This document shows, in pieces, positions 14,756-60,024 of a DNA stretch of 64,000 bases. The position numbers were made by a program, and so were the translations under genes. The stretch comes from Bilabrum cf. latius (Eukaryota). The first letter of the stretch is position 1, and each line of letters opens with the position of its first letter. The stretch is from positions 1 to 64,000 of the forward strand of contig OZ237754.1 of the NCBI GenBank assembly GCA_965178125.1, read 5' to 3'. The notes under the pieces are model-generated. The model did no database searches. It had not been told where the DNA came from and worked only from the letters and a program-made list of their open reading frames with translations.

Positions 14756-16732
14756 TTAAGCTTTCGGCTATAATTTTGGGGCCCTGGTGCATGCCTACAC
14801 AGAATTTCCCGCAAGGGATTGCTGCGTGTGCTCGCCGAGCATGCCTGAGGCGAGCAGTGGCCAGGAGCCCCAGCCGCTCGGGGGTAGCCCAACGCCAAGT
14901 CTAGCGCGGCCCATCCGCGCCCCATCGGCAGTATGGTTCACAGCAGTTTCCGGAAGCTATGTACCTCGGTCGAATCCGTTGAGTACATCTACTGCGTGCC
15001 TCTCCTCGAACCCCTGGTCCATAGCACCTTGCCTGCCCTTGCCGAGCAACCCAGCCTGCTTCTGCAGGCCGGTTTCAGCAGCGTGCGCCGCTTCCACGAC
15101 CTTGGGGTCCGCAGGATCCTCGCCAGACAGCCCATGCCCCGCGATAGAAAACCCCTGGAAAGCTGCGTGCCACCATGCATAGCACCTCTCCAGCGCGGCG
15201 CACATGGGCTTGGATGCCGTGGATATGCGCTGGGGCCCTGCTGGCCCGCACTCTTCCCTCATTTCAGTGGCGATCTGCGAGTGGGTGAGGCTGTCTGCGA
15301 TCGATGCACTGACACTCAGTGTCTCGTCCAGGCTCTCTGTCTGATGCCACCAGTCCATCGGGTAGTACAGCGCATCCCCGGGGCCAACTGTGTCCAGGTA
15401 GCACCGCGCCTACCGGAAGCGAGGGGCTCGCGAGTAGTCTGGCTTAAAAGCGTCTACTCTTCCGGCGTCATACATGAAGGACCGCTGGGCAGGCGCGCAT
15501 ATGTGCCACCGCTTGTGCCCCATCACCTGCACCTGCCACGAGGAGGTCCTGATCACATCCCAGTGGTTGAACATGCCCGCCCCGCGGCTGCCGATGAGAG
15601 CCATCTTCCAGTGGGTGCTGCGCAGAAACTCGTTCCTCAGCTGGTCATCGGGGAAACAGGCCCGCAGCCAGGACTGGTCCGCCTCAAACCTCGCCGGCAG
15701 CACCCCGAGCAAAGCGCGCACACTCTGCCACTGCTCCCAGGCCAGGTTCAGCTACAGATACACGGACCCGGGGCGGCGAGGCGAGCGCCTCAGCATAGTC
15801 TTCTCCGGTGGTCGCCTGAACTCATCTGCCGCTTGCCAGAGAGGCACCATCCAGGGTGACACGGCCGTGGCCTCCATGTTGTGCGGGTAGGCGTCTACCG
15901 GCATGTCGGGGAAGCGCTCCAGAAACCACGCCAGGCTGAGGTTGCGCCACCCGCCTGCCTCCGTAGACCCCACAGATGCGTGTTCATGCGGCCCGCGCCA
16001 CCCCATAGAGAGTTCGTCCTCATCGGATATGCCTTCGATCCCAGGTCCGCCCCAGCTACGTAGCTGTGACAAGCCCGTCAGACGGAATGGGATTGTGCCG
16101 CCGCGGAAGGGGGCAGCTTTCGATCCTCCCAGAATAAATTCCTTAACATGAATAATCGGAAGCGGAAGCACCACATGTTCGAATTTTTCGGGGTTGTTAA
16201 GGTCAGGATCGTCGAAATAGTTCAGATCCTCAGCTTTAGACTAGTTGACAGTGCTTGCCATCGCCTAGACCAGCTCTTCGTCTTTTTGTGGCCTACGGAG
16301 CCTCACTGCTGGAGGAAATGGTTTGCTTGGAACCGATTGATTACTGGTCCCGCGAGCTTGCTGCCGAGATCGGCCCGCGGCGTGCCTTCGCTGGTCGTTT
16401 CGAGCAGCTCTGGTCTCCATGTATTTCTCAAGGTCATCCTTGTTTCTACGAGCATCTTCGTTTGCAGGATCCTTCACAAGGGCCAACTCAAATCGAGCCA
16501 TTGCTTCTTCTAGCTTGCCTTGACGCATCAGCACGACGCCATAATTATTGTTGAGTAGCGCGTTGCTCGGATACAGTTCGAGGCCCTCAAGGAAGACTGC
16601 GGCCGCTTGTGACATCTACCCCGATTTTGCAAAGCTCAGTCCTTTATCATTCATATCCTTCGGCGGAGCTACGATTGCAGTGCCGAGGCACGAGGCGTGG
16701 GCTAGTAACAGTGCCACGTAAAACAGCCGCAT
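14756..16732 (-). CDS. Signal peptide + TPR + JmjC 2-oxoglutarate/Fe(II) oxygenase (JMJD8-like, ~658 aa)
   Basis: MRLFYVALLLAHASCLG signal, TPR (NNYGVVLMRQGKLEEAMARFELALVKDP), JmjC FNHWD...QVMGHKRW...GDALYYPMDWWHQT. Joined through TAG, ends TAA. Confidence 0.85.
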
Positions 16733-16903
16733 TGCTGCCTGCCAATGGTGAAGTGTTCAGTCAGAATGCCCTTTAGACCAGAGAGAAACAATGCAAAAGT
16801 CTCGACGATAAAACAACAAATATACCGCAGTTCTGGCGAAATATGCCACGACAATGACCAGATGTTCGCGTGACTGGGTGCGCTCGTCACATGAGGCGAT
16901 GAG

Positions 16904-19900
16904 TCACTGCCACCCCACGGCTCGCCGAATCGGCTATTGCTGACCAGACGGGGTCCCATACGAGCCGCGGTCTGCATACCGTGCACCTGGCAGCAGCCCT
17001 GCCACGCCGTTCTGCTAGCCAGTGGCAGCAGCCACGGCATTTCCAGCGTACCTGCCTGCAGCGCGGCCGCCTCCTCCAGCCCTTGCGTGCGAGAAGCTGG
17101 CGGATTGTGGCTGCTCGTCGCTTGCACCTCCCTGTGCCCACCGAAGCCCAGGCCCAACCACAGCCTCCTGGCCAGCCACCTGCCCACTCCCCACGCGCCC
17201 CCTTAGTCCAGGCAGCGGCTTGCTCCCTCCACCGCGACCCCCGTAGCCTCCCACTTGCCACCTGCTACCGCCAGCCACGCTCCCGCTCCCGCTCCCGCTC
17301 CCGCTCCCGCTCCCTACCCCAGCCCCAGCCCCAGCGCCCGGCCGAGGCCCTGTCCTACCAATCGCCCCTGGCGTCGACGAAAATCCTAGCGCTCGGAAGC
17401 GGCCCGCTTCGGCATCTGCGCCACGACCAGGAGCCGAGCCCTCCCCCTGGCCCTTCCTGCCGTTTCCCGCTCTACCCTCGCCCGAAGCTGCTGCAGGCTG
17501 GGGCGAGCTTGCCCACCCGCCAGGACTGGCGCGCCCAAGACCCATGTGGCCCTAGTACCCGCTAATCCCACTTCCGTACCGGCCCCTCTGCTCTGCGACA
17601 GACCCGTCCAGGAGCTCAGCCATGGTGGTCGCGCTGCGGTCCCTGTCGCTGGCCCCGGCTGCATGCCGCCGCTGGTCATGCTGGATCGACCTGCGCAGCA
17701 GAGGAGGCAGTGCAGCATCATCCCAACCGGCGCCATTGGAGCTAGTAGCCCCAGAGCCCGCTCGCAGCCCCCCCGCAGCTCTGCTCCTGGCTTGGCCAGC
17801 TGCTGCCGCGGCCGGAGATGGTACTCTGGCTGGCACGTGCTCTCCAGCGCCTGGTGTCGCCTAATCCTGGAAAAATTGCTCGAAGGGATCGTCACTTTTG
17901 CTGCGACCGCTGCCGGGAGTCCCCGCGGCAGCGTGCCGTAGGAGGCTCTAGACGCCCCCGGCCCCTGCCCCCCCGGCAGTCGGATGCCTCTGCTACTGCC
18001 GAACGGACTGCACCCTGGGCGCGGCTGACCCGGCCCGGCGCCTAGCGAGAGCCTCAGCACCAGCCTGATCTCCGATGTTGCTGCGCTTCCGGGGTCTGCC
18101 TGCCGCCCCGCCAGCTCTTTTAGCGTAAGGGCTACTCTGCGGGTACCGCGAGGGGTCGGGTCGCATGCCTGGGGGCTCGCCTGCCCTGCCCCTGCGAGTC
18201 CTGCCCTGGTTAGACACAGAGGCAGACCGCACACCTCCCCGCAAACCTCGCTGCCTCGCCCCCCCGTGGCCGCTCGAGTCCCTGGGTCTCCCCGCCGCTG
18301 GCCCGTGCTCCTCCCCGCTTGGCGACTCTCCTGCAAATGCCGGTCCAGGGGCCATACCGAGTCCGTTCCGCTGCAGCACACCACCGGGCCCGGGGCTTGC
18401 ATGCAGCCCGCGCACTGGCTGGGCCTAGCCACCGCTGGCGGTGCCGGTCCGCCTGCCTCCACGGGCATTCCGTGATCGCTGCTACCGGCCCCTAGTCAGC
18501 CGTGACTCTGCCTCTCGGCCAAAGGCGGCCGCACCAGCGCGCTGGTGCTGGTGTTGCTGCTTCCCATCGGGGGTGAATGACCACGTGGGCTCCTATCCCG
18601 CGATGCCCCCGCCGTCTGCTGTGCCTCCCATGCGTGCCGCGGCTGCTGCTCTGTACCTACTGGCGGCAGCCCCACCGCCTCCGAACTGCGTCCGTGGTCT
18701 CGCCACTGCCCTCCTTGGGGGCAAGCCGTTGCGCTGGCGAGGACGCGCCGATGCTCGGGGCGCGGAAGAGCCGCCCCTGGGCGCGCCCGCTCCTGCTCCT
18801 GCTGCTCCTGCCCCCTGGTCCTGCAGGGTGAGAGGGGACGGAGCGATCGGTCTGCCCTTCCCCTATCGCAAGCCCCCGTCCATGTCACTCGCAGATGAGG
18901 AAGTGCTATCCCGAGGCGGCGCTGCCTTGGATGGGCCAACCGTGGAGGTTGCGTGCCCCGGTGCCCGCCCTCCTACCCCTAGCTGCACGATGGCCAGCGT
19001 CATGTTGTCCCTGCTGCCAAGCTCCAGGCAGTGGTCCAGCATGCAGGAGGCCGCACGGGCCAGGGGTGCAGCTGCAGGGGTAGCGGCAGCAGTGCCTGCT
19101 GGCAGAGCCACCCCCTTGTGCGCCTGCTGCCCGGCCGGTCCGTGGCCCTGTCGTGCCCCTTTGGGCACACCGCCCTTTGACCGGCATGCCTCCCGCGCAA
19201 ACCCAACCCCTTCTTCGGAGCTCATGACGTCCCATATGCCATCGCAAGCAAGCACCAGAAACTCATCAGATGGGTGGCGCGGCAGCGAGCGCACATCCGG
19301 CGCAGCTGTCACTGCCTGCGCTTCCGCCTCCAGGTCCGACCGGCCCTTGTACTCGTAGTCGCCCAGAGCTCGGCTGACAGCTAGTTCACCATTTACGCGC
19401 CCATTCGCAACCATCAGGCCAGCTCTCTGGATCCTCCTCCTCTCAGAGGGCGTGTCAGGTTTGTGGTCCTCGCTCATGGCGACCGCCCGGCCCGCGCGGC
19501 ACAGCACGGCCCGACTATCACCAGTGTTTGCAACCAGGATGTCTCGCGGCGTGATGAGACCAACGACTGCCGTGGAGCCAGCGTGCTCTACAGATGGCCG
19601 ATACAGGCGTTTTCGCAGCACTGCATCGATTTTCAGCATGGCTTTGTACAGCACCTCGCTCCACTCCTATGCCGACGACGCAGTCTTGTAGCCAGGAACA
19701 GAAGCCATCACAGAAACAAAATCAAGTGCGCTGCGATGTATCGATTCAGACGTCAGTAAAGGACACGGTCTCGAGACGCTACAGTCGGACAGCAGTGTAA
19801 CGGTATGGTGCCCAGCGCGAATTGCGTACACACCGCAAGGTATTAGTCGGCAAGAGGGTCAGGATGCGTGCATGTTTGCACGACCATCGATGCTCGGCTA

Positions 19901-20298: not shown

Positions 20299-20522
20299 AC
20301 CTGCACTCGGACTGCAATCGTTCCACAGACGCGATAAAAATTTAATTGGATTTTAAGCTACCGGCCTGCGGTCGTCCAAAATAGTCACTGCTTGAGTGCA
20401 AGGCTGGGAGATCGGCAACCAATTCGGCGATGAAAAAAGCACCCAACTTTAGGAAGTTCAAGCCTGATCCTTGAGTGGCTCCACTCGCTCTATTTGCAAG
20501 ATACTGAGGCTGCGTGTCTCAC

Positions 20523-23500
20523 ATGAGTTGCAGATGGCTATTGGTAAGTTTCCTCCTGCTTGATCATTGTGTTGATTCGACCTTCGAGCATTTCTTACGT
20601 GCATACCACTCCCGACCGTTTGATTTTCACTGGGTGTTGCTCACAGGGCAAAGACGCGTACGTTCCGGTGCTTCATCAAGAGTTAAACCGTCAAGATGCA
20701 TCTGCCGAAAAAGGATCATCATCCGGAGAGGACACAACTGAGCGTGGCGTTGGCTCTATGGAACTGCTCGCCATAGCAAGCGTTGATACCGGGGGGCCTG
20801 TCTAGAAGCAGTTCGTCCATTCTGCGCCGCAAAATGTAGAGGACCATACCCGTCGATCTCAATCGTATTGTGTTGCAGGTCGATGGGTTCCGGCAGGCCA
20901 AGCATCGGCATCTGGCCCAAAGCACGCAACTGCTCACTAGCTGCATTGCATTCTTGGAGCTGACAGAGTCCACATTATGAGGACATTCCATAGCCAGGAT
21001 GACCACCACATCTAGAGTGCTGACGATCTAGCCGCAGAAGAAGCAGACTTGCAGCGCGAAGTAGCAGTTGTGAAGTTGGGCTCTCCCCCGACTGCAGCAT
21101 CCTTCAGTCCCAACGGAGATTTGCTCATTGTTGGCGATGCGGAAGGACGAATTCACTTTGTTCTGAGCAGTGGAACTTTGCTTTTTACTTAGGACATCTT
21201 TGGGTCCCAAGGCCGGGGAAAATCCAAGAAGAAGCTCAAGGAGAGCGAGTAGGCCACCAGTGTTGTCGATGTCTCCTTCTTGTGCCCTCCTCCCATGGAG
21301 GCGTCGTAGATGCCCACTGCTCCCCTGCTTGTGGTAGGTGCTGGTGCTAAGGCATTGCTTCTGTCTGGAATCCGTCCCGCCCAGCTTATTCGGGCGGCCA
21401 CCCAAGGAGACGTGGAGCGACTGCGGGCCCTGCGGTCTCAGGTCAAAGTGGCCTCTGTGAGGCCTGACATCCTGCGGGACGATGCTGATAAAGGGGATGT
21501 AGGAACTGATTCGCAACCCGTCAAATCAGAAGCAAACATTCGGGCCCGTTTTCATTGGACGGACAATGGCCCAGTCGTGCTTGCAACCGTGCAAGGGCCG
21601 CATAGTGAGTCGGTCCGGGTCTTCTCGTTCGATGATGGGCAATACCCCGCGCTGGATGCTGGGGGCGACAATCGCGGCGGAAAATCTAGCGATGCAGGCC
21701 TGGGGCTAGGCCTGGGCCTTGGTCTTGGCCTAAGTGAGGATGATGCGGATGAGGCAAGCGCGGCCGAGGGGCGCAGCATGGCACCTGGGGCAGCGGCACC
21801 TGGGGTGTCAACTTTGAGTTTTCTTTTTGAGGTCGGGTCGCTGGGGGGCATTTGCAGGCATGCCCGCTTGAATCGTACCGGGGATCGCGTGTTAGTAGTG
21901 CATGGAGACAAGCCAGGTTGCTAGATAATGCCTATTGGATCGGGTGGTGCAGCTAGCGCCAGCGCAGGCGAGGGCGACGTATGGTCGTACGTTCCACCGG
22001 AAGGGTACTTTGTGGTGCAAGCCGAACCTTCGAATCAAGTGGCCGAAGCATGCATGGCACGCGTGCAGGCTGGTGCGTCCTCGCCAGATTCTGCCGGCAG
22101 GCAGCTCGTTGCTCTGGCCATAGTGAGTCGCTCCCCAGGCGCAGACAAGCCCGAGCCATCGTTTTGGATAGTTGGTCTGGCCGCACCTGAGCATGGCAGC
22201 TCGAAGCTTGTGCCAATTGACTGTGTGGCCATTCCTGCGATTGGCACCGAACCGGATGTCCACTCGCAGGCATCACAGCGAGCTATGCGTTAGGCCCCGC
22301 TGGCGATCCACGTAGAGCAGTCATCTGGGTGCCAGTTCGGTAGCATATGCCTGGCATCTTTGGCAAGATCGCCAGCAACTCTTTCAGACGACGCCGAGAC
22401 AGATGATCAGGGTCGCGATTGGGTGGTTCTATCAGATCTGGTAGAGACGGACCCAGTGGCACGGTTGGAGTTTCTGGCTTGCCAGGACATGGTGCCCAGG
22501 GCAGCGCTCGCTTCTTTAAACGTGTCCAACGGATCAGTAGTATCTCCCTGCATTGGCGAGACATTGGATAGTCCTACGGCAGCTGAGTGGGCAGAGTAGC
22601 TTGGCATTGACGATCTTGATGTGTGCCGAGCGAAGGCTGCAGTGGCAGCCCGCTGCGTGTCTCTGGCTACAATTGTCCGAGCTGGTAATTCGGGGCCCCA
22701 CATAAGTGCACTAGATGACATGCCAACGATGCGTGACCTCGCAGAAATGCTGGATCACCTATCAGGCGACCCTCTGTTTGTAGCGGAAGTGTGCACCTCT
22801 GCAATCGGCAGTTCGAGGGAAGACGTTCGAAACATTTTGGACTACGCCGTGGCTGCATGCGAAGCGTAGGCGAGAGAGCGGCGAGATGCTCCGAAGGCTG
22901 GAGCCGAGGACGAGACGTCTGAACTTTTTGGAGCCTCTGATGGCCTTTCTTTCGCTCTTGATATGCGACAGCGATGGCAAGCGTTTGAGAAAGCGTTCGC
23001 GGCAGCGCCTGCTGGCACGTCGCCGGATTTCGATGTCTATCGCTGGCAGCGCTGGTCCAAAGGCACACTTGTGGATGCATTTGCAGACGTTAGTCGTGTC
23101 GGCAATGCAAGCGGTATGATTGAATTTTGGAATTTGTGTGGATCCACCGGACTAGCTACGACTCCTGGGTTCCACCAAGCCGTCTGTGCGTGGCCTCGAA
23201 GTGCCAGCCCGGTACCAGCCGCTTGGTTGCAATGGTTTTCATTGAGTATTCTTCCAGTCATTTCGAAGGAATCCGCACCTGAAGTAGCTAGCTGGCTCGT
23301 TGAGCATGGTCTGGCAGCCATCGAGGCGCAGGATCCCACCCTGGCGGTTGCTTGCCTCAGAGCCGCTAAGGGAATCGCGTAGCCGATACGTAGGGGCGCA
23401 TCGTCATGCGCTGCTGCCATCACGTCATCGTCTTGCTTGGACGTACTCAATGTTGTGTCTTGTCATGCTTCTCCGCTGCTCCTGAGTGACGATATTTCGC

Positions 23501-26500
23501 TTGAAGCTAGCGAGGTCAACGAAGTGCGGTCCTCAGCGATGGGCCCGTCGCTGCTGGTTGACGACGACGGGACGGAGCTGAAATCGCCGACCTAGCTCTG
23601 TGCACAAGTTGAGATGGAGTTGCGCGCTCCATAGGGACACGGACACAGCGAAGTCCTCGAACAGCTTTCCGACTGCGTGGATGACCTCTGCTGGCTGGTA
23701 GAGAAAATATCCATGGACTGCAGCCTAGCTGAATTAGCTTCGTCCAGTGCTAGAGATGTTGGTGTCGAACTGATTCACAGAGCTTTGGAATCAAATAGTC
23801 GTTCAAACGTGCTCGACAGTGCACGGCAATGGAGTACCCGGAAGTCTACGTCGATGGACGCTGTGCTCGCAGCCTACATTCGAGACATTGGTCGAGCCTC
23901 CGAGATTGCAAGCGAGGCCGAGGCAGAGCAGCACCCCAATGCTGCAGGCCAGGGTGCACCAAATGGTGCCTGGTCCAAGCCTGCAGCAGGAGGTACTGGA
24001 GATAATAGTCATGCTCCCATGAGAAGCAATGCTGATCATCCTGGCTGGCGGACGCTATTCATGGCTTGCGGCACCACACTTGAGCGCCAGGTATTCGTTC
24101 GTGGCCTCTTCGAAAATCTTTCAGTTGAGGTCGCTTCTATAGTTGCCGCGTAGAACGGTGACTTGTGGCACAGCGGTGGTCATGACCTGTCAATCATTAA
24201 GGCATCCAATTCGACTCGGCATACGCATACCCACTTCTTGGATTCGTACTTTGCGCTGAGCCGTCGAATGAGCAACATTTATGCGCCATCACAGCTCCAC
24301 CAGTGGGTAATGAGGGCAAGGACAGATCCCGCGGTGCTATCGGCTGTGCTCCGCACGTTGGCCGCTCGCGAGGCGGCCTCCATGAAAAGTTCAGCGGGCG
24401 TAGCGGTGCTGCAAGGGGTTTTGCATAAGACTGCTGTGGCAATTGGGATGCCCTTGTTTTCACTAGCCACAGCTGACACATCTAAGTCGCACGCCTCAGC
24501 TTCTATGGAAAGGCTACTGTCAAGAGCTGCGTGTGATCGAGTTGCCCTCGCGGCAATTGATGTACAACGCGCCAACACGGCTGGGGTGGTTGCTCGCCTG
24601 ACGAATTCCGACCGGCAGTGCGGCAAAGCAGCAGAGTAGCAGGTGCAGGCAACTTTGGGCCAGTTTAGGAGTATTTCTCGGGACCCTCTCCACCGCACAC
24701 GATCAGACTCGAGCATTGCTGCCGGTTTACAGAGATTGCAGCGAATTTCGATGTTGAAGCTCTCGGCAAGACCGCAGTGTGTCAATGCCCGAGAGCAGCC
24801 AGGCGAGGCCCGCGCTGGCGGTGAGTGTATGGGCCATGATTCGCAAGAACTGTTTGCCATGCTTCGGTTTGGGCGCGGTGCGCTGCAGCTCTCCGCCAAA
24901 GGGGTTGCAACAACTGCAAGATCCGTAACAGATTTCAAGCGCTTCGATGGCTCCGGTGCTACGAGGCACCACCTTTGCCAGGATATGCGATCTGCAGGCT
25001 GCGAGGTAGACGTCTTGCAGCTAACCGAAGAGGGAGAGTACGGGGTCTCCCTCGTGCGATCGGGCAGTGGCACTCAGATGCCAGCCTCTTCTGAAAGCAG
25101 TGGCGCCGTAGCTCGCAGCATCAGCAGCAGCAGCAGCAGCAGCAGTAGACGCGGGCTGAGTTCGAAGATATTTGCGGGGCGACCCAAGCCATCGGCACCC
25201 AAGAAAATACCGACGGAGGAGCGCTCTAGACCGGTGGCGGAGTATCGACGAGGATCAGAGTCTGCTGACACCGCCCACACAACGAAACGTGGTGGTACTC
25301 CGGCACTAGCACCTGCCATACCGAGACTTCGAGCGGTGTCCTGCGGCTACGAGACCACCAGGTTGCTCCGGCGGTACAAGCCAGGTGCTCTGGTTTTGCC
25401 GTCTCGATTGGCTCGCAACTTGCTGTCCAAAGTGTCCGCACGGTTCGGACAACTCGGTAACGCGAGACTGTGCAGTCCTACGGGGTCGGTTTCACCATCT
25501 TGGATGCAACTGTCGTCTCAACTGGCCAAGCACGGAGCCGTCCAACTGGCTGCTCGGGCAAGTGTTTCCGCAGCGCTCACTACGACAGTAGCCATTTCTG
25601 ACGAGGACGACCGTGTGCTGACTAACCACTGGGGTAATGAGGCCAGTGCAGAGTTGACGGAGCATCTTAAGGTTGTGCACGACCACATGGATGGCGATGG
25701 TGGGGTGGCAATGCCGGCTAGTCTAGTAGGAGCCCTCCTTGAGATGTTTCATGCTGAGTATAGCACCGCTGGTGGTTTCGAGATGAATGATAACGACGCC
25801 TGTGTACAATTTGCTTGCTTTGAAGCCGCTACTCGCGCTGGTGATCCCGCTGCAGCCGAGCAAGCAGCTCGGTCCAATAGATTGGCTCGCTGGGTTCCTC
25901 GACTTCGCGCCGTTGGGCTAGACACTGAAGCACTCCTCGACGCGTATAGGGGTGGCATTGATGCTGATTCAAGCGTGCTCAGTGTCCCTGTCTCAGCTTC
26001 AGGTCACACCATCGTGGGAACAGGCGAAATGCGAGAGCTTTCTGCAGCCCAACTCCAGTTGCTATTCCGAGGCGCAGGCTTCAACTTTCGGGCTGTGCGG
26101 CAGTACCTGCAGACACTAGGGGCAGACGAGGTAAGGTCGCGGAGGGCATTCTTGGATTCACTTCTTGCTGGGACAGAGTCGCAGAGTGCCAATGCAAGCC
26201 TGCAGGTTGACGGCGTGGGCGGGGAGGCGCATCTCGTAGCATGGCGACGACGAGCCACCGAGGCGATGTCAAGCATGCTGATTCCTGATGCAGTTGCCTG
26301 CCTTGGGGAGAGACTGCCTGGAATCAATCCGACTGATTACTCAAGACTCGTGTTTGCAATGGGTTCCGTGCACGAACTGCGCCCACGGGACGCACAGATT
26401 CGAAAGGCGCTTGCCGTCGGTCGGCTTGCAATGGCTATTCGCCCTTTGCGCCGCGTGACAGCACAACGTCAAGCGGTTCGATTGTAGTCTCTCGTGCAAG

Positions 26501-29500
26501 AAATAATGAACGCTACTCGAAAGGTTGGAGGCAGCTGCGATGCTATTGCGGGTTCTGTTGGCGATGACGAACGTAGCGAGGTTGGCACTGGGCAGGAGCC
26601 AGCTTCAAGTTAGAAGGCAGTGGATGCACTCTGCGAACTACTCGCTCAGTCATTCACCGATTCCTACGTGGCAGGTAATATGAATGGTGCAGTGGGGCAG
26701 GGAATCGACAATCAATCCGACTGGTTCCTGCCCCTCCCGCAGCTCCTGGCTGAGCCCTTGGAAACGCTGGTGCCGCAGCTACACCCAAGCGGTATCACAC
26801 AGCTGTTACCGCTTGCGAGCATCCTGGGGATCGATCCAGATGAGCTGCATGCTGCGCTAGCAGTGCGCATGTGTAGATGCATCGTCAGGCATAGAGTTTT
26901 TACAGCCCAAGCCAACGCGATACTTGCGCGGCTTGCAGCCGACCAAGATTACGGTGCGCGCGAGAGCTTTGCTGCAATAGCAGCAGTGGTTGCAGATACC
27001 CCTGGGATAGCTGCGGAGTCGATTGGGTTCGAAGATGTGCAGCAGGTGTTGGGTGGCATCTAGGATCAGGCGTACTTGGTCGAAGCCGTCATTTCGTGCT
27101 GCAGGGAGGTACCCAGTGACTACGCAGACCTGGCAGAGATATGTCCAGAAGTTTACGACGCCGCGAATGCTTTCTGTGTCTTTGGTTCCATTGTTGCAGA
27201 CGAGTTCGACAAGGTGGTCGCAGACAGAACTTCTGACGCGGTCACCGCGTAGTCAAGCCATGCGCTGCAACACCGACGGTTTGAGCGGCTGGATGATGAT
27301 GCACTTCCTCAGATTGACAGCGCGTTCTTGTCGATTGGCAAACAACCCGCTGTCGACAATCAAAGCTCTGAAGTACGAACGATTGTGTCTGACACAATAG
27401 TCACGGCGCATTTGCAGACACTTGATTCTGCTCGTTCGCGCGAGAGCCACAGTGATTCTGCCACTGAGAGTTTGTCAAGCTCATTTCGCGCTGCAATTCG
27501 GGCATGCGGTTCAATCGAAGGTATACTAGCGCTCCGAATCGCTTTATCTACCATGGCCCACTCTGGCGCGTCGAAGGAACTCGAAGACTTGGACAGCGAA
27601 AGCAAGGGCGGGGACTCCATGCCCAGCGATGAGGACGATTTCAGGATGCTCAGTGCTGCTAGAGACAGCCAGGATCGACACCTGAAGGCCCTTGTGTCCA
27701 AGCTGGAGGTGGCACTCATGGGGCCGAACGTATACGCGGCCTGCGTTGGAGATCTCGGACAGCTTTGGACTTCGGCGATATCAGTGGATGAGCACCTGGA
27801 AGAGACTGATGGCGCTCTGCTCCAGGACGGAGTTGATTTGAGCGCAGTACCGGAAGAAAGTGCCGATGGGGAGGGGAACAAGTACAGCCATCGGCCGAGA
27901 GAAGTTCGACCGGACCTCAGTGCCAAGGATACTCAGGCTGCAGCATAGCTCATACGGCGATTGGGCCGTCTGCTGGCTCCTGCTGAGCATCAGAGCACCT
28001 CCGGCTCGTAGCGTAGCGGCAGCGGGTGGATCAGGCACATGCAGCTGCATCACGTGTTGTGTTCGATATCCGCAAGGTTTGGAGTGGACTTACAGCAAGT
28101 GGCCATGTTGTATGCGAATGAGGCCCTCGGCGCAAATGCCGCGGAGCGCTGCCACCAGCGAGCAGTTGAACTTGGGTCTGGACAGGCCGCTAGTAGCACC
28201 ATCGGCACTGTGGTTGAAGATGAGGACGCCGAGGTGCAGCTGGAGTTCGAGCTGGCGTGGCTGTTGGGGAGACCAAGACGAGACCCAGCGGGGTACTGGC
28301 AGATGTACAAGGCGCTGGCAAGCCCAGAGGCGTGCTACCGAGCTCTGCTCAAGGTGGCGTTTGCTCCTGAGCCCGAGGCTGAAGCCGGAGGTGCCTCTGT
28401 TCGCGCGACACGTGCCGGGTCCAGGCGATCCTAGGCAAAGGTTGTGCCCCCATCCAAGCGCGGGCGGGCTCCGACCCCGATTATGCGAGCCCGTGCCTTG
28501 CGAGTGGCCTTGCGGATCGCGAGTGCCACAGAGCTGGAGACCGCATGCCCCGGTGGCCTGAGGTCGCTTGTAGCTCAGTTGCTGTCATGTGGGCACGTAG
28601 CCAGGTTGTGTGCCCTAGGCGGGTCAGACACGGCGAAGGGTGCCGGGGCTAGGGCGACAGGCCGTGCAGACGGTAGGAAGTCAGGCCGTCGAGATGGCAT
28701 GCGGTGGGATCACGCCACCACCGTGCGAGATTTTGTGGCTTGCGATAAGGGATCGTTGGCCAGGGGGCTGTGGAGGGACATGCGAACATCCAGGGCGGCG
28801 GTACGAGAGGTGGTCAGCTTGGTGATCGACTTCGGGGCCGGCGATGAGGTGCTGCTCGAGTCTGCTCTGAGACAGGCGCTGTCGCTCGGGGACCACCGCT
28901 TCCTGCTGGACGTTTGCCTGTGCCTCCAGGAGCTTTCAGCTTCGGCTGACTCGGCGCTGGAAGCAGCCATCCAGGAGGCGGAGTAGGAGGCAGAGGTACA
29001 CAATGACGAGCATGCGGTGGATATCTGGATGCTGGGCGCTTCCCGCAGCCCGGCAGCAGTGCTGAAGTTAGCAGCAAGCGGACTAGCGGCTGTCGAGCAA
29101 AGCGAGGGGTCTGAGGAGTCCGTACGGGGGATACAGACTCCTGTTCTGACGGCCCAGAAGTCGCGGTTGGTGGATGGCCGGCTGGGTGTGCTGGAGGTCT
29201 TCCTGTCAGCCGCGGGAGAGAGCCTGGAGGCGCTGCTGCAGGCGCTGAGGGCGCGGCGGGAGGAGGAGCAGGGGAGTCCATGGGCAGGGTGGGTTGCTTA
29301 GCGGCTGGAAGCAGTGTGCCGGTGCATGTCTTTGTGTTCTGCAGATATGCCTGATGCTGCCCCTAAGCCAATGGGGACTGCGGCAGAGCGCTTGGCAACG
29401 CTAGCAGAGTAGCTTTTGTGTCTGCCAGCGGCCCGTGCGACGGAGGCCGGAGGTGAGGCTGCAACTCGTAAGTCTGGACAGGAGGGAGACGGGCTGCGGG

Positions 29501-29562
29501 AGCACTTGTCAGGGCTAGCTGATCGATTGTGGCGAGTATGTTGCGCGCTGCGTCAGCTGTAA
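20523..29562 (+). CDS. KNTC1: Kinetochore protein ROD/KNTC1-like (~2980 aa)
   Basis: One frame 20647-29562 with 25 TAG and no internal TAA/TGA, ending TAA. Putative short first exon from ATG 20523 with intron 20544-20646. The C-terminal RARALRVAL...FVACDKGSLARGLWRD...AVREVVSLVIDF resembles the Rod_C motif, and the N-terminal LLIVGDAEGRIHFV is propeller-like. Confidence 0.75.
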
Positions 29563-35460: not shown

Positions 35461-35539
35461 TGCTGCCTGCCACACAAAAACCGGAACTCATCTACTGCAG
35501 ATCGGTCAGAAATCACTTTGCTGCGACTGATCGCAGCTT

Positions 35540-39499: not shown

Positions 39500-39939
39500 G
39501 CTAACTTTGTGCTGAACTGGCACCGCGGTCGAGAGCCTTTGCGTTTGCAACTCGGCCTCCAGGTGCAAGTGAGTAAGAATGCCCTCTTACGGATCAAACG
39601 ATTAAATATCAGAGTATCAACCAATCATGGGTACAAATAGAAACCAATTAATGTAAGAGATCGTGTAGCAGCCCGGTTAACAATCCAGCGGCAGGTTGAG
39701 ACTGGACACAAAAAACGAAAGCCGGCGTCACTCATCACACAACCGGATAAATACACTGTTCGTTTTAAAATCAGATTCCTGCAATTGAAAGAATACCATA
39801 TTCCCGCAAATAAAGTAGTGTGTCGTTTGGCATTAACGGCTCTGCCGACCCCAACCACCATTCAAGGAATACTGCCCATCAAAAGCAGCCTCTTCTTTGA
39901 AGCTTAAGCCTTTCGCTAATAAAGCCCAGTTAACTTATA

Positions 39940-43582: not shown

Positions 43583-43689
43583 GCCGCAAATTTCTTTTCC
43601 CTATTTCGGGGCCTACAGGTTCGTGAACGTTCGACACGGTTTGCTTCTTCGGTCGGGGCTTCGTGCAGACCACCCTTCCACTTGAGCGC

Positions 43690-46660: not shown

Positions 46661-48192
46661 TCACACCCTCTTCGCAAGGGAGAAGCCGATTGCAGCCAGT
46701 CCCGCCACCGCTGCCCCGCACCGCACCACCCACCGCCCCCAGCGATTGCTCGGCTCCTTCGCACTACCCCTGTCAGAGCTACCAGCTGCAGCACCTTTTC
46801 CGTCATCCCTGGCCGATCCGACATTCCCCAACGGCTCCGTGAAGCTGTCAAAGTCCATGGGAAGCTCCACTCCGGCCTGCTTGCCCCCCAAGTAGGCCGC
46901 CCCCGCTGCCGAGCTGACCACGGGCAGCACGAGCCGGGCCCCAGTCAGCTGCACCCAGACATCGCCGGCACCGCTTGCCGCTGCCGCCCCCGCCCCTGCC
47001 TTGACCTTCACGGGGGCAGTCGCAGCGGCCTCGAAGCCCTCCTCCAGCAGGTCCCACGACTTGAACACGCTCCCAACTGCCGTCACTGAGAGCACTGGCA
47101 ACCGGACAGCCGACTTCCGAGATGAACCTGCCCCCGCCGGTGCACCTGCCTTGCTCCCTCGCTGCTCCACAAAATGCTTGCCCGCCAGCGTCCTGGCCAT
47201 GGCCCCCAGCATGGCCCCCGCCTCCCGGAAGATGCCCTTGAGGAACAAGTCCCCTTGCTCCCTCGCAGCCCGCGCCAGCTCCTTGGTGGCCCCGGCGATG
47301 TCTGCCTTCACAAACCCGTCCCCGTAGAATATAGGGACTAGGTCGTGCGTGCTCACCGTGCGCCAATCCAGTGTCTGCTCCCCATCGGGTACCCCTTCGT
47401 CTGCACCCCCACTGCTCTTGGCCCTCTGGATGATGGGCGCCAGGTGCCTCCGCAGCACCTCCCACGCCACGTCGACGTCCTTGAGCCCCCACACATCCGA
47501 TTCGGTCCCTGTGCTGCAAGCAACCGCAGCATCGGCAGGTCCCCTGCACGGGCCGGGGGCCTGGAAGCCATCGAGCGCCCACACGACCCGCTGAATGGCC
47601 TGGGCCGTGATCCAGTAGGCACCTGCCTCATCGCCGAGCATGTGGCCCCAGCCTCCAGTGCGCACGTCCACGCCGTCTGCAGAGACAAGCTGTCCAATCG
47701 AACCAGTGCCAGCAATCAAGACGGCGCCTCCTTCGGGGTTCGACGTGAAGATGGATCCCTTGGAGTCCTCCATGATATGGATCGGACAGGAGTCCGACCA
47801 AACGTGCTACGCTTTGTTGCGGTCTCGCAGAGCTTCGCACAGGCGAATTTGCATCGCTTCCTAGCCGCACCCACTCATGCATAGCCCTAGGGCCTCGATT
47901 TTGGCAGAAATAAAGTCATCTCCAAGCTTTGACCGAGCATCTCTGAACAGCGAATGAATGATATCCGCGGCAGTGTCGAGGCCAGAGAGGTATGGGTTGG
48001 AGCCAGCACCTCGACTGCTTGCTAGAAGCTTACCGTTATCGGAATATATATGCGCAATCGTGTTTGTACCACCTCTGCGCGATGTAGATGCGATAAAAAC
48101 TTTGATCACCTTGTGCGACGAGCGATGCTCCATGGAATGACAGGGTATACCTACGTCACGCACCCTTCTATGCCACCAAACAGTCGAACCAT
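46661..48192 (-). CDS. NAGK: N-acetyl-D-glucosamine kinase (BadF/BcrA-type ATPase family)
   Basis: MVRLFGGIEG|GGTNT, GSNPY, LGLCMSGCG*E, GAVLIAGTGS, GGWGHMLGDEAGAYWI, VGSVFKSWDLL. Intron 48163-48075, ends TGA. Confidence 0.93.
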
Positions 48193-48340
48193 TTGATTCA
48201 CTGGCACAATCGACAAATGCGCCGGCTTGTGATGCAAAATTTAGCTTGACTATGCCGATTTTGCGAACGAAGAAGATAAAAAGCACACTTCGTTCGTACA
48301 TTCACCCTGACGGTATTATAATTACCAGGCATATACTTTG

Positions 48341-51300
48341 ATGAATGGGTAGGGTCCTGTCACGAGCTATGCTGACTACAAGAAGCGCATGACCAGCCAG
48401 ATGCCACTGCAGCAGACGCCGCAGATGCATGCCAGTGGCTAGCAGTTCGCGCATCAAGTACAACCTCAGTGGCTAGTGCACCAGCCGCCAGCGGCACGCT
48501 TTGTTTAGTAGCCAACGCAACCTGCGCTCGCGCAAGGGCACCTCGAGTAGCTCAGCCCTGGCGGGCAGGTGCCTGGAGTGCATGCAACACACACGCAGTA
48601 TGGAACTGCAACATAGTTCAGCGCGCACGACTGGCAAGTACGCTGCAGCAACTACGTGGAATCACTAGCATAGAGAGCAGAGACGGCATTCGGAGCAGAG
48701 CGAGCGGCTCAAATGGGATACTCTCGAGACATCTTGCACGGCAGTATGAGCCAGGCCTGCAGCTCAGTTATGCACGGTGTTACGCGGGATAATAGATTCT
48801 TTGAAGTTAACTGGTCCTAGTAGCCGATACCACCGACCGATGTCACCACCAGACTTGCAAAGCAGTTGGAAGCACGAGATGCTTTGCTTGGCCCTGCCTC
48901 ATCGCATGCTGCGGTGGCTCCAGGGGCTGTGCCCCCACAGCACGCCTTTCCTAGCTCCAGCTCAAGCTCAAATGTGGCTGCATCGTAGTGTTTGTCGGGT
49001 GCACCCGTGCGCACAGACGCAACGACGGGACACGCCGCGGTAGCACCAACCCCAGCGGCGACCCCGTCAGTTCATGCAGGCCCAACAGCGCCCTCGACGC
49101 ATAACAAGCACGTGGCACCATCCATTGGCAAGCTCTAGCTCTTTGGGGCGCCGAACAATACCTCTTTGGGCGGGTCCACCATTCATGGTGGCGGAGCTTC
49201 TGCCGCTAGCAGCAACAGCAGCAGCAGCAGTAGCACTGGCGCTGGCACCGGTCCTGGGTGGGCCCCGGCAGCCAGTGCGCCGCACCCAGCCGCCTCCTCG
49301 CGCGCACCCGATTTCCTCTCCATTGACCCCTCGCAGGATAGAGCCCGGCATGGCCCGCATACTGCCGCACAGCCATCTGCCGGGCTCACGTACGGCAGCG
49401 GCACCCTCCAGACCTACGGTGGTGCTGGCAGCTCCGACACCGCGACCTCGCAGGGAACCAAAAAGGGTGGTCAAAGTCGCAAGAGAAAGCGGGGGCAGGA
49501 CCAGGAGAGCGCTGACTTGGATGCATCCATTTCCTAGGTGTCCTCGAAGAAGAACTCGAAGAAGAAGAGGCGCGCTGAGCGGCTGGCTCGCTTCTCAGAT
49601 CAGCAGCCAGCGGATGGAAACTCAGGGGATGCCGCTGCAGCTGGTAGTGACGTCACCGCTCTGATGGCGAGGGGCATTGGGCTGGGCACCTCTGCCGGCC
49701 AAGCGGCGCCCGATGCGCAGCAGCCGGAACGGCGGGTGGAAGGCAGCAGCAGCTCTGCTCTCAAGCCGTACTTCCGTCTCACGGGAGCCGTGGATGAATC
49801 CAAGGTGCGCCCGCTGGCAGTGCTTCGAGAATCACTGGCCCTCGCTCTCTCTGCCTATGCTACAGGGGCCCGCAACTACGTATGGGCGTGGTCGTAGCTG
49901 AAGAGCATCCGCCAGGATTGCGTTGTGCAGCGGTTCGATGAGCACGCGACGCACCCGGGCGATAGGGGTGGCTAGGACAAATCGAAGGGCTGGGACGATG
50001 GGGGCAGGTCTCGCCTGCTGTTCCTAGTGAGAGCATACGAGGCACATGCACGAGTGGCAGCCGAGCAAGGAGACATCACCGAGTTCAACCAGTGCCAGAC
50101 GCAGCTGCTGCGGACCTACTAGAGAATCAGAGAAGCAGGCATTGCGCGAAAGGGGAGCGATGAAACCACTGCACTGGGTGCTTGGGTACGTGATGGGCGC
50201 ACTGGTGCAGCGCCAGGTGCGGCAGCGCTGGCCCCGACGATGCCTCGACAGGAGGAAGGTCTCGAGTTCCCCAGCGCAGCTCCTGATCGTCTGCTCACCA
50301 TGCTGCAGGAAAGCGACCTGCTGGCCTTCGAGCCGGAGTTCGTGGCCCTCCGCATCCTCTACGCGGTGTACGCCGCCGTGGCCGCTCTGTCCTCCTCGCG
50401 CACCAGCCGCACCATGCGCCTGGACGCCTCGGACCAGTCGGCGGCTGCCGCTGCGCGAGCCACGCTGCTGCCGCTGCTCAGGGAGATCTCGCCGGAAGTC
50501 CTGCGAGCCCCCGCGGTCCAGGCAGCCCTTGATGCACACCGCGCCGCGACCACAGGTGACTTTGTTTCTCTGTTCAGGACCATTCCGCAGCAGCCCGGGG
50601 TCGGCGGCAGGGTGCTCCTGCTGGCGGCGCATGCACACAGGGTCAGGGCCATCGCCGCGGTGTGCTCCTCCCTGCGGCCTGGTTTGCCGGTGGCATCGCT
50701 AGCCGGCGCCTTGGGCTACCGGTGCAACGAGCACCAAGGAGGCGACAGGCCTGCACCTGGGACAGGGTCTGGGTCTGGTGACGCGGTTCGCGTGCACTGC
50801 TGCCTGCCAGTCTCCGTTGACTACCCCGCGCCGTGTTCCCTGGAGCTGGTGGAGCTTCTGGCATCATGCGGGGCAGTGGTACAGCCAGTGGGCAGCGACA
50901 AGAGCGGTGCGGCGAGCGGCGACGGCAGGGGTGCTGCCCCGGTGGTGCGCTCGTTGGCAGCGGAGGAGCGGTCGTGTCACGAGCGTGAAATCGCGGTGCA
51001 GAGCATGCAGGCAGGATCCAATGCGGGTGCATCGTTCGGGCCTGACTCTGCCTCGTCATCGTCATCCTCCTGGCTGGACCAGCCGTTGATGGCGCAGTCT
51101 CAGGCCAGTGCGGGGAAACAAAGCAAAGGCAAGGGAAAAGGCAAGAAGAAAAACAAGAACAAGAAGAAGGGGAAAGGGAAGAACAGCGCAGGGGCTGTCG
51201 AGAGCCCGCAGACGATGCAGTCCTCTGCTGAACAGGGACACGAGTTGCCGTTGGAAAGCCAGGACGTGCCGGTGCTGGACGGCCTAGCCACGTGCAGCAG

Positions 51301-51772
51301 GACTCTCCTGTCGCATGGAATGGACTGGGTGCGGCCGCCCGTGGGTGCAGGCAGCTATGCCAAGGGTCACCCCGGCCTGCAGTCAGCCGGCCTGCCGGAG
51401 GGCTGGGTGCAGACTGGATGGGGCACCGGCCAGGATGCCACCGGACAGCTGCTGATGGCCACAGAGAATGGGCAAGCAACGCGACTGGAGCGCACGAGCA
51501 TCGGGGCAGCTGTAGCTCTGGCGGCAGGAGGTGCTAGTCCTGAGCTGTAGCGTGCCGCCCTTGCGTGGGTGCTGCCTGCGGATGCCTCCTCCAAGGCAGC
51601 AGAAGCAGTGGTGGCCAGGTCCGACGAGCGTTGCTTTTCCCCGCAAGAGAGATGTAGGGTACTGCTGGCGGCCGGCGAGCCGCCTTCCCTTGCTGATCTC
51701 ATGCTGCTGAGTGGACCCTCCCAGGTGGACATCCACGGCCCGTCGCCCATCGCCATGGACAAGAACGGATGA
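48341..51772 (+). CDS. LENG8: SAC3/GANP-family protein THP3/LENG8 (~1140 aa)
   Basis: [73 protein letters not shown]. Gln-rich N-terminus, ends TGA. Confidence 0.88.
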
Positions 51773-58672: not shown

Positions 58673-58680
58673 TGGCCCAG

Positions 58681-60024
58681 TTAGAGCCCTGAATCCCGTT
58701 CACCCCCACCACTGCTCACTGGGCTCCGGTGAAGCTCCCTGCGTTGGGATTCCCAAGTCTTCAGAAGTTCTGGGATGGAGCCAGCTCCCACCATAGCCCG
58801 AAGAATCCCACTCCTCGTAACCCTTGCCGCTTCCATCAATGAGTAACGATCATACACCGCTGGCATGTTGGGCAGAGACCACCCAGCCTGGCCGTGCACG
58901 TACTTCTCGTCCTTGGTTGGGTCCGTCTGGCGCAATGCTGACACTCCCGCACTCTTGAAGGCGTACACACCCTCCCCCTTGCGGTGCACAGGAATCCCTT
59001 GCGCTGTTATCCACTGCAGCGTGGCACTGTGCGCAGCCCGTGTTCGAGAGGCGAATACTTCCCCGCGCTGCCCTTGTGTTGGCTACCGAACTGATACCCA
59101 CCACTTCAGCCACCGATACGGGCACAACTCCTCGAATCCATCCGGCAAGCATGGAATGACCGCTGGCGGGCGCTGCTCGGGGTTGCCGCCGAGCACCCGC
59201 GACTTGTACCGCTGCCACCCAATCAGTGCCACGGGAACAACCTCGTTGTCATCAGACGCTGCAGTCCACTCTATCTCCCCTATTGCCAGATGCACCAGAT
59301 CTGGCCACCGGGCCAAGCCACAGAATGTCCCCACATAGCAGCACATAAATGTATCGAGAACCGCTGGTGTTGAGTTGTAGTCCGCACGGGCCAGCGCAGC
59401 TGGGCCTTGCCACATCGAATCCCACTCTGCCTGCAGCTACCAGGCCATCATCACTAGTGCTCGCAACGTTACAGGGTTGTCCACCAGGACACGTAGGGCA
59501 CGTACCGCGTCCGGATCCGTCGCCCCGGCACATCTACGCTTGTAGCCGAGCAGGGCCAGTTTGACCTGCCTGTACTCCACGTCTGCGAGTGGGGTACGCG
59601 GGAACTCCGCTGACCTGAACCACGCCGTTTGCGCTTGGAACAATCGCAACACTGTGGCATACTTCAACCCGGCGGCGCACTACTCCGTCAGCAAAGCCCA
59701 CATGGCCTCCACCGGATCCCCGACCTCAAGTTCCGCCTGCATGGTCAGATTCCGCCTGCGCGCGTCCAGAGCTCCCTTGCCGAGCTGCTGACTCTCCTAC
59801 AGCATCAGGGTCCTAGTCGCCGCCACCGCTGCTCGCCGTTGTGCCGCAGCACTTGAGCCTGCTCGTCCAGTCACTGGGATCAGCTCCCCAAATGGTCCTG
59901 CGAAGATGAAATGGTGCATGAAAAGTTGAGTCAGATGTCGCCCTTGCCGCCGAGACAAACCCCGTTTTGCCCACGCGCTGCCCCGCCGTCTACACCAGTT
60001 GACCAGCACCGTCCTCCACCCTGC
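58681..60024 (-). CDS. Tyrosine recombinase of the retroelement
   Basis: Frame open 60024-58681 through 4 TAG, ending TAA. Motifs FCGLARWPDL, RYKSR, LCPYRWL, GVYAFKSAG, QAGWS, MPAVY. Start uncertain. Confidence 0.8.

Follow-up and report, generated by a model that had tools for sequence, protein, structure and literature searches.

UAG probably read as glutamine, with UAA and UGA retained as stops, at a GC-rich telomere-bearing chromosome end

Introduction

UAA and UAG nearly always change meaning jointly. A sequence-only reading of the stretch of DNA analysed here (the window, a 64-kb telomere-bearing chromosome end of 59% GC) had proposed that the two have parted, UAG being reassigned while UAA remains a stop. 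The question raised by this locus is whether that is so, and if so what UAG encodes. About 20 genes from this one chromosome end were examined. In the nuclear code UAG is very probably a full glutamine codon, with UAA and UGA as the sole terminators and UGA the commoner of the two, as base composition predicts. The code itself is already known from a few other protists and the window probably represents a new lineage with a known code.

Results

Open reading frames in the window

Under the standard stops the longest open reading frame (ORF) in the window is 799 codons. Freeing TAG gives longest ORFs of 3360, 3004 and 1153 codons, whereas freeing TAA instead of TAG leaves the longest ORF at 799 codons, a gain of zero. 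With TGA as the sole stop the two largest ORFs merely become 3367 and 3013 codons long, an extension of 7 and 9 codons respectively. Every long gene of the window reads through TAG. The features are as follows (coordinates, strand, description).

1..610, no strand: telomere repeat (CCCTAA)n, read directly, marking the chromosome end
2037..12119, minus: 3360-codon ORF, weak C2 domain match, 50 TAG, 0 TAA, TGA end
12504..14648, minus: 714-codon ORF, PAN domain, 7 TAG, TGA end; the orthologue in the relative L001 (below) also has a weak sulfotransferase match
14756..16756, minus: TPR and JmjC/cupin ORF, 666 codons, 8 TAG, TAA end at 14756-14758
16904..19730, minus: last exon of a PP2C phosphatase, long low-complexity tail, 11 TAG in the ORF, TGA end
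19731-19986 and 20084-20186, minus: PP2C introns
20646..29562, plus: large exon of a gene of ~3000 codons, 25 TAG, ending TAA CGG TGA TGA; 3004-codon ORF at 20548-29562, intron at 20543-20645, TAA at 29560-29562
30007-30116 and 30186-30273, plus: Not3 introns
30274..32065, plus: last exon of Not3/CNOT3, a single TAG in the exon, TGA immediately following the conserved C-terminus
32464..35460, plus: Zn-dependent phospholipase C and FG-GAP ORF, 4 TAG, TGA end
35531..37534, plus: FAD-dependent oxidoreductase (DAO) ORF, 5 TAG, TGA end
37667..39586, minus: ASC (DEG/ENaC-type channel) ORF, 6 TAG, TGA end
40385..41614, plus: main exon of alpha-tubulin, conserved part without TAG, TGA after ...EEEEM
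43627..46539, plus: 970-codon ORF of no known family, 6 TAG, TGA end
46661..48301, minus: N-acetylglucosamine-kinase-like (NAGK-like) ORF (BcrAD_BadFG), 2 TAG, TGA end
48311..51772, plus: SAC3/GANP-domain ORF, 16 TAG, TGA end
58681..60024, minus: last ORF of a retroelement, 447 codons, 4 TAG, TAA end at 58681-58683
59726..62383, minus: reverse-transcriptase ORF of the same retroelement, 18 TAG, 0 TAA or TGA in frame, TGA end
62118..63998, minus: first ORF of the retroelement, running off the window, 6 TAG, TGA end

In-frame TAG thus occurs within Pfam-supported JmjC, PP2C, Not3, DAO and NAGK-like genes. Two gene names given in the sequence-only reading were not confirmed. The 3004-codon ORF, called KNTC1, matches Pfam once, below threshold (ARM_KNTC1_1st, 17.5 bits where the cut-off is 27.3, E 0.0038), and was without a match in a search of the PDB, as was the phospholipase/FG-GAP ORF. 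For the 447-codon ORF, called YR, Pfam and PDB searches were both without a match. The repeat reported beside this ORF is present: two copies of 300 nt in direct orientation (56473-56772 and 58291-58590), 100% identical to each other. A DIRS/Ngaro-like tyrosine-recombinase retroelement would have a reverse-transcriptase ORF, a tyrosine-recombinase ORF and terminal or split repeats; this element shows RVT_1 matches in 59726-62383, a last ORF unmatched in Pfam and the PDB, and the direct repeat adjoining that ORF. A protein search with the reverse-transcriptase ORF was empty at E 1e-10. Rfam gave no match in the window or L001, and no entry was found in the ESM Atlas for the alpha-tubulin ORF (table 11).

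Codon counts

Codons were counted in 16 stop-to-stop ORFs delimited by TAA and TGA (16,749 codons). In frame, TAG occurs 171 times and TAA and TGA not at all; off frame in the same DNA, TAG, TAA and TGA occur 319, 115 and 652 times. The count of 171 is an upper bound, since a few TAGs at the 5' ends of the ORFs fall in introns or precede the start, for example codon 14 of the Not3 ORF, which is a TAG inside the intron at 30186-30273. Together with 188 CAA and 449 CAG, TAG makes up about 21% of the glutamine codons if it is read as glutamine. That TAA is absent from the inside of genes, as had been claimed, is borne out by these counts, although the zero is partly built in because the ORFs were delimited at TAA and TGA. 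A stronger test than the absence of TAA is that the ORFs delimited in this way are whole genes, the two largest growing by only the 7 and 9 codons given above when TGA is the sole stop.

Where the genes end

The three TAA ends lie where the sequence-only reading had placed them, at 14756-14758 (minus), 29560-29562 (plus) and 58681-58683 (minus), and the remaining 13 long ORFs of the 16 close with TGA, in agreement with that reading. When ORFs are bounded by TGA alone, the TAAs that close these three genes fall 2, 80 and 34 codons short of the next TGA, and all other TAAs in the gene ORFs are upstream of the coding start. In the 3004-codon gene the TAA is followed two codons on by TGA TGA, so this end alone is no proof of termination at TAA; a transcript contig from run X5 ends at 29623, 61 nt beyond the TAA. 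An 80-codon read-through past the TAA of the JmjC gene would enter the start of the next gene.

The JmjC end can also be compared with that of an orthologue in L001, a metagenome contig of a relative with ~58% protein identity and 52% GC. The tail of the protein is conserved and the orthologue stops at TGA, three residues from the TAA in the window (...CTRAPKL-TAG-PKA-TAA in the window, ...CPRAPPSW-TGA in L001). In the PAN-domain gene, TGA falls at the same aligned residue in the window and L001. UGA is seen as a terminator in Not3, alpha-tubulin and the PAN-domain gene, where it falls at the conserved C-terminus, as well as being absent in frame. In all four genes whose conserved C-termini could be checked (these three and JmjC) the terminator is TGA or TAA, never TAG.

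These ends bear on the possibility that TAG has a dual role, being mostly glutamine and a terminator in some contexts as in Condylostoma or Blastocrithidia, so that some of the ORF tails would be 3' untranslated regions. TAGs do occur 67, 13 and 4 codons from the end of the JmjC ORF, and the end of the L001 orthologue lies roughly opposite the final one. The ASC ORF also looks non-coding downstream of its last TAG (71 codons short of the ORF end) in a log-odds measure of codon usage, but this score is noisy and dips within known domains as well. Against a dual role, the JmjC tail is conserved past the TAGs at codons 600 and 654 and TAG is found at none of the four conserved C-termini. In 7 of the 16 ORFs the last TAG comes within 100 codons of the ORF end, where about 10 of 16 would be expected at a density of 1%. 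A dual TAG is considered unlikely. TAA shows no duality of sense and stop, occurring only at the ends in gene ORFs.

The missing in-frame TAA

If UAA and UAG were both glutamine (UAR = Gln, NCBI table 6), the lack of TAA would have to come from GC-richness. A genome of 59% GC, in which TAA is less common than either TAG or TGA, and a sample of only ~16,700 codons would favour such an explanation. However, about 72 in-frame TAAs would be expected from the usage of CAA and CAG (188:449), or about 57 from the off-frame rate, and none is observed. The relative provides a second test at a more even composition. Four ORFs of L001 (2080 codons) hold 20 TAG, no TAA, 31 CAA and 35 CAG, with 33 TAA off frame, and about 18 in-frame TAA would be expected if it were a sense codon. 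Given that CAA is about as frequent as CAG in L001 and TAA is still absent, GC bias cannot explain the missing TAA. The only in-frame TAAs in the window are at ORF ends and the JmjC orthologue has TGA in place of the TAA of the window. Reading the window with table 6 is very improbable and already close to refuted. Thus the claim that UAG is reassigned and UAA kept as a stop is upheld by the codon counts in the window, the relative L001, the TGA end of the orthologue and the transcript contigs bearing TAG described below.

The amino acid at TAG

Sequence comparison indicates that the amino acid read at TAG, which the sequence-only reading had left unnamed, is glutamine. One well-conserved site is the TAG in column 335 of the JmjC alignment, where Q is found in 76 of 109 distant homologues, H in 24, M in 4, R in 2, Y and V in 1 each and a gap in 1. 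Fragments from close relatives have Q at 4 of the 5 window TAGs that they span and K at the other. Comparison with L001 gives a more varied picture: opposite 15 window TAGs L001 has Q five times, R and S twice each, D and I once each, TAG at one shared site and gaps at three, while opposite 17 L001 TAGs the window has Q four times, A three times, S and R twice each, I, P, E and V once each, TAG at one shared site and a gap at one. Q accounts for 9 of these 26 aligned comparisons in which the partner is not TAG and no other residue for more than 4. Human NAGK has Q opposite one TAG of the NAGK-like ORF. Less conserved sites show mixed residues opposite TAG, and in PDB alignments of the PP2C and DAO-family proteins the TAGs fall in unconserved columns.

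Some residues would suit a different amino acid, for which glutamate, lysine or leucine might be considered. At the sole exonic TAG of Not3, human CNOT3 carries Glu rather than Gln, and the Lys in a close relative has already been mentioned. With Q predominant in the conserved JmjC column, in the close relatives and against L001, and with Leu never and Ser rarely found opposite TAG, the probability that TAG encodes any other amino acid is very small.

Transcripts across the TAGs

The contigs of runs X5-X7 show GT..AG joints that are absent from the DNA run X1. The runs are not recorded as RNA and are taken to be cDNA because of these spliced joints; the comparison used X5-X7, leaving out the small-share runs X8-X11. 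The introns are of the GT..AG type and ~90-260 nt long. The long pieces from X5-X7 have no differing letter from the window over the exons bearing TAG. As the transcript contigs are identical to the DNA at the TAGs, the TAGs are not edited away. The notion that the TAGs are untranslated, whether through pseudogenes, assembly errors or removal by RNA editing or splicing, has nothing in its favour beyond TAG normally being a stop and is refuted for practical purposes by these spliced contigs, by 171 TAG against no TAA or TGA in frame, and by TAGs common to relatives with protein conservation spanning them.

Relatives sharing the code

The code is common to relatives at ~95%, ~80-87% and ~58% protein identity. 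Proteins predicted from these relatives with the standard code start or stop exactly at the positions of window TAGs. For example, the relatives' fragments P0151-P0153, which correspond to the 3360-codon ORF, each have a start or an end at a shared TAG and have Q and K at two of the window TAGs. Among 20 JmjC homologues looked up, the only named ones came from Plasmodiophora brassicae and Ploeotia vitrea, which shows a protist-wide family rather than a taxonomic placement. A tentative proposal, to which we give somewhat less than an even chance, is that the window belongs to an undescribed GC-rich non-ciliate lineage with at least three members (extending to ~58% identity), present also in metagenomes, in which UAG is anciently a major glutamine codon with UAA and UGA as stops, and that this is a further independent origin of an uncoupled UAR code.

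Discussion

A possible mechanism

The glutamine reading of UAG would call for a tRNA-Gln with the anticodon CUA, which would decode UAG and be unable to pair with UAA. There would presumably be no tRNA with a UUA anticodon in the organism, and eRF1 would have lost or weakened its recognition of UAG while keeping that of UAA and UGA. Searches found no tRNA gene in the window or L001 and no eRF1 gene within the window. The proposed combination of tRNA and eRF1 changes agrees with published reasoning: for Iotanema and the rhizarian exLh, the codes of which were analysed from transcriptome data, PMC5304391 argues that a CUA anticodon decodes UAG but cannot decode UAA, and reports changes in eRF1 in both.

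Comparison with known codes

The sequence-only reading was right that changes confined to UAG are rare, though several more are now in print (PMC11687900). UAG as glutamine with UAA as a stop is described for Iotanema, Protocruzia and some phyllopharyngean ciliates (PMC5304391, PMC11687900). A close match in code is Iotanema spirale (Fornicata), in which, as in the window, UAG is glutamine, UAA and UGA are stops and neither is reported in frame, and for which the same mechanism of tRNA-Gln(CUA) and an altered eRF1 has been proposed (PMC5304391). The two differ in the main stop, which is UAA in Iotanema (104 UAA against 15 UGA) and TGA in the window (13 against 3), and in the share of UAG among glutamine codons, ~8% in Iotanema and ~21% in the window (figures for Iotanema from PMC5304391). 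The window has 59% GC and telomeres of the TTAGGG type, and the likeness to Iotanema seen here is one of code.

Protocruzia tuzeti and two phyllopharyngean lineages have the same codon table, of the NCBI table 15 type (PMC11687900). Set beside those ciliates, the window differs in being part of a long chromosome arm (64 kb or more) that is dense in genes, has 59% GC, carries GT..AG introns and ends in a (CCCTAA)n telomere. We take it that this does not look like ciliate macronuclear DNA.

The UAR = Gln codes of many ciliates, hexamitin diplomonads, ulvophytes, oxymonads and Amoeboaphelidium protococcarum resemble the present case in that a stop has become glutamine by way of a variant tRNA-Gln (PMC5304391, PMC6299283 and PMC11687900). 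They reassign UAA as well, whereas in the window TAA closes genes and is missing from their coding sequence. Amoeboaphelidium was rejected as a candidate, having ~40% GC (PMC10608142, table 1) against 59% here and being reported to read TAA, too, as glutamine. A third group, in which UAG is sense and UAA a stop as here, consists of exLh with UAG as Leu, Scotinosphaera with UAG as Ser and some phyllopharyngeans with UAG as Leu (PMC5304391, PMC11687900); these differ from the window in the amino acid at UAG. A literature search, with subscription journals and supplements outside it, found no paper on a GC-rich non-ciliate in which UAG is glutamine.

Each natural uncoupling of UAA and UAG shows that eRF1 and the tRNA set can discriminate the two. 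The present case offers telomere-bearing genomic sequence, spliced transcript contigs and relatives sharing the code at several distances, and with these the predicted tRNA-Gln(CUA) gene, the tRNA from which it arose and the changes in eRF1 could be read directly and dated. Both transcript data and an assembly at chromosome scale seem to exist, which is unusual among cases of uncoupled UAR. Gene callers using the standard code break these genes into pieces, as seen in the relatives' database proteins, which are fragments cut at TAG, and annotation of this genome needs table 15.

Reading frames and genes

When all three standard stops applied, no ORF in any of the window's six frames exceeded 799 codons. 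When only TAA and TGA were taken as stops, ORFs of 3360, 3004, 1153, 998, 984 and 970 codons emerged. Freeing TAA in place of TAG left the longest ORF at 799 codons, and freeing TAA besides TAG lengthened the two giant ORFs by just 7 and 9 codons. Sixteen ORFs (16,749 codons) contained no in-frame TAA or TGA and 171 in-frame TAGs, a count slightly inflated since the ORFs run from stop to stop and a few 5' TAGs precede the start or fall in introns. Off frame, the DNA of the same ORFs held 319 TAG, 115 TAA and 652 TGA. TAG therefore occurs equally often in frame and off frame (10.2 and 9.5 per 1000), while the coding frames shut out TAA and TGA. Here TAG acts as a sense codon. Ordinary eukaryotic genes were recognised by Pfam in the TAG-open ORFs:

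12504-14648, minus strand, PAN-domain protein
14756-16756, minus strand, TPR+JmjC/cupin protein (JmjC gene, 666 codons)
16904-19730, minus strand, PP2C
30274-32065, plus strand, Not3/CNOT3
37667-39586, ASC-type channel
40214-41614, alpha-tubulin
Zn-phospholipase-C/FG-GAP protein
DAO-family oxidoreductase
N-acetylglucosamine-kinase-like protein
SAC3/GANP protein
Retroelement with reverse transcriptase

The names KNTC1, for the 3004-codon ORF, and YR, for the last retroelement ORF, proposed in the sequence-only reading, were not confirmed. The retroelement region (56473-64000) holds three overlapping ORFs with TAG as sense in all:

62118-63998+, minus strand, first ORF, running off the window, 6 TAG
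59726-62383, minus strand, ORF with RVT_1, 18 TAG
58681-60024, minus strand, last ORF, 4 TAG, ending at TAA

Judged by the order of its ORFs, the element may be DIRS/Ngaro-like, with a putative recombinase. A 300-nt perfect direct repeat (56473-56772 and 58291-58590) adjoins it. Some ~30-40 conserved residues are missing from the start of the alpha-tubulin ORF, and an intron with a further exon upstream is therefore expected. The C-terminus is ...EEEEM, where the usual alpha-tubulin residue is aromatic.

TAA as a stop codon

The sequence-only reading had UAG reassigned and UAA kept as a stop. The TAA ends that it listed were found at exactly 14756, 29560 and 58681, and the rest did end at TGA (13 of the 16 ORFs). 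This 3:13 ratio is what composition predicts from the off-frame TAA:TGA ratio of 115:652. The absence of internal TAA is partly built in, as the ORFs had been cut at TAA, and the informative test is a scan with TGA as sole stop. The absence held there as well, the TAAs of gene ORFs sitting only at the 5' ends, ahead of the start and within the first 20 codons, or at the 3' ends:

3004-codon gene, TAA 2 codons ahead of TGA (TAA CGG TGA TGA)
JmjC gene, TAA 80 codons ahead of TGA
Last retroelement ORF, TAA 34 codons ahead of TGA

By our own calculation, three sense TAAs would all lie so near the ends of such ORFs by chance about once in 100,000. No internal TAA was seen against ~72 expected if TAA:TAG usage followed CAA:CAG (188:449), or ~57 at the off-frame rate. 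TAA and TGA are kept out of coding sequence and used at gene ends.

A contig from a relative

One metagenome-contig scan with the JmjC protein returned L001, a contig of 8645 bases and 52% GC from a relative. It encodes the orthologue of the JmjC protein (380 of 651 aligned residues identical), followed immediately, in the same arrangement as on the window, by that of the PAN-domain protein (343 of 677). The third gene of L001 does not adjoin the JmjC/PAN pair on the window, and synteny stops at this point:

L001 5404-7608, minus strand, purple acid phosphatase, two exons

The four L001 ORFs (2080 codons) have 20 in-frame TAG, no TAA or TGA, and all close at TGA; off frame they hold 33 TAA. 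About 18 in-frame TAA would be expected were TAA a Gln codon. As CAA (31) and CAG (35) are about equally used, GC bias cannot account for the missing TAA.

The JmjC tail is conserved between the two contigs to its very end, and the TAGs of window codons 600 and 654 lie within the conserved part. The window gene ends ...CTRAPKL-TAG-PKA-TAA and its orthologue ...CPRAPPSW-TGA, which places the L001 TGA three residues from the window TAA. In this alignment the orthologue's TGA is the most direct indication that the JmjC TAA works as a terminator. The PAN-domain genes of both contigs have TGA at the same aligned residue. The observation that UAG is sense and UAA a stop is confirmed, and the core of its interpretation finds support in the in-frame counts (TAG 171, TAA 0) and the orthologue's end at TGA.

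Does TAG ever terminate?

TAG may at times also terminate. The last JmjC TAG lies 4 codons ahead of the TAA, about level with the L001 orthologue's end, and in the ASC ORF the codon-usage signal is lost past its last TAG. However, this score is noisy, no enrichment of TAGs is seen towards ORF ends, and none of four homology-anchored C-termini ends at TAG. The ASC ORF (DEG/ENaC-type) has a low-complexity tail of ~300 codons and its codon-usage signal falls at codons ~400-480 and beyond codon ~560; the model of this gene may have to include an intron or end sooner.

The amino acid read at TAG

HMMER, run over the full library with the JmjC protein as query, found 16,555 matches. Among the best 150 of these, 109 homologues align at codon 335 (...VYL-TAG-LNLAW...), with Q in 76, H in 24, M in 4, R in 2, Y and V in 1 each and a gap in 1. 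The matches include short proteins at 95-96%, 82% and 60% identity, the last two from the L001 lineage. These short proteins are pieces of the same gene, produced by gene calling with the standard code. One begins directly after the TAG at codon 47 and stops before that at 164; another stops just before TAG 449 and has Q at codon 335. When the two giant ORFs (3360 codons, 2037-12119, minus strand; 3004 codons, ending at 29562, plus strand) were searched against short proteins, they gave seven more fragments from relatives (78-95% identity), which start or stop at window TAG positions. Those spanning window TAGs have Q, K, Q and Q; with codon 335 included, four of the five sites so spanned have Q. 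Where the window has Q, one relative's fragment ends.

Opposite window TAGs, L001 has Q at 5 of 11 positions (gaps and the single shared TAG left out), and the window has Q at 4 of 15 L001 TAGs. In PDB alignments Q was opposite TAG in human NAGK and E in human CNOT3, and the TAGs of PP2C and the DAO-family protein fell at unconserved columns. Glutamine alone recurs opposite TAG. These comparisons show that TAG is read through as Gln, making up ~21% of glutamine codons (171 TAG, 188 CAA, 449 CAG), and this code is common to at least three diverged relatives.

Transcripts and introns

Contigs of four sequencing runs (X1, X5-X7) were aligned to 12001-32000. X5-X7 carry no firm RNA label and their cDNA content rests on spliced joints: GT..AG joints absent from the DNA-like X1 indicate that X5-X7 contain cDNA. 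The introns in these transcript contigs were:

19731-19986, minus strand, PP2C, joint 19730>19987
20084-20186, minus strand, PP2C, joint 20083>20187
20543-20645, plus strand, 3004-codon gene, joint 20542>20646
30007-30116, plus strand, Not3, joint 30006>30117
30186-30273, plus strand, Not3, joint 30185>30274

All five are canonical, 88-256 nt long and near gene 5' ends; the long downstream exons are unbroken. Long X5-X7 pieces (e.g. 13569-17259, 20646-25110 and 25157-29623) had no letter differing from the window, so the TAGs of the JmjC and 3004-codon genes are present, unedited, in transcripts. One transcript contig stops at 29623, 61 bases beyond the TAA at 29560, a weak hint only since contigs cannot define ends.

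At 18792, inside the PP2C ORF's low-complexity tail, an X1 contig has a 9-base in-frame insertion (CTGCTCCTG), which is a length variant or repeat collapse. At 22202 and 24992, single low-depth contigs (X7 and X6) show T in place of C in the 3004-codon gene, each at a second codon position; these changes could be alleles or errors and neither make nor destroy a TAG. The Not3 gene has an acidic poly-Asp/Glu repeat of GAC/GAG type at 30862-30903, which draws many unrelated contigs, with a summed depth of 84-707 against ~10-70 in adjacent bins and dozens of loose ends. This peak is a mapping artefact and not high expression.

Proposed mechanism and known codes

Such a code would need a tRNA-Gln with anticodon CUA, which would pair with UAG and not UAA, no tRNA with anticodon UUA, as this would read both codons, and an eRF1 having lost UAG recognition. 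This proposed mechanism agrees with that of the sequence-only reading and with the tRNA-Gln(CUA)/eRF1 argument for Iotanema and the rhizarian exLh by Pánek et al. (PMC5304391). No tRNA gene and no match to an Rfam family were found within the 64-kb window.

The code itself is of a known kind. PMC5304391 and PMC11687900 give UAG as Gln with UAA as stop for Iotanema spirale, Protocruzia tuzeti and two phyllopharyngean lineages, and UAG as Leu or Ser with UAA as stop for a rhizarian, other phyllopharyngeans and Scotinosphaera. The dominant stop is TGA in the window and UAA in Iotanema, and the UAG share of Gln codons is ~21% and ~8% respectively (Iotanema values from PMC5304391). No description of a GC-rich non-ciliate with UAG as Gln was found in the literature outside subscription journals and supplements, and the UAG-Gln/UAA-stop code probably has a new carrier in this lineage. 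Amoeboaphelidium was ruled out, with ~40% GC and TAG and TAA both reportedly read as Gln.

The chromosome end

About 600 bases of (CCCTAA)n, degenerating at 595-612, open the window and mark it as a chromosome end. Next to the telomere the GC content is 49%, and further inward it is 54-68%; a short AT-rich subtelomeric stretch (~830-1100) follows the repeat, and the first gene ORF starts ~2 kb inward of the telomere. Towards its N-terminus (residues ~320-470, ~10700-11150, minus strand), the 3360-codon protein carries a long series of near-identical repeats rich in Ala/Glu/Asp/Ser/Pro (...SPADADA...AEAEAEAGSAEPAG...).
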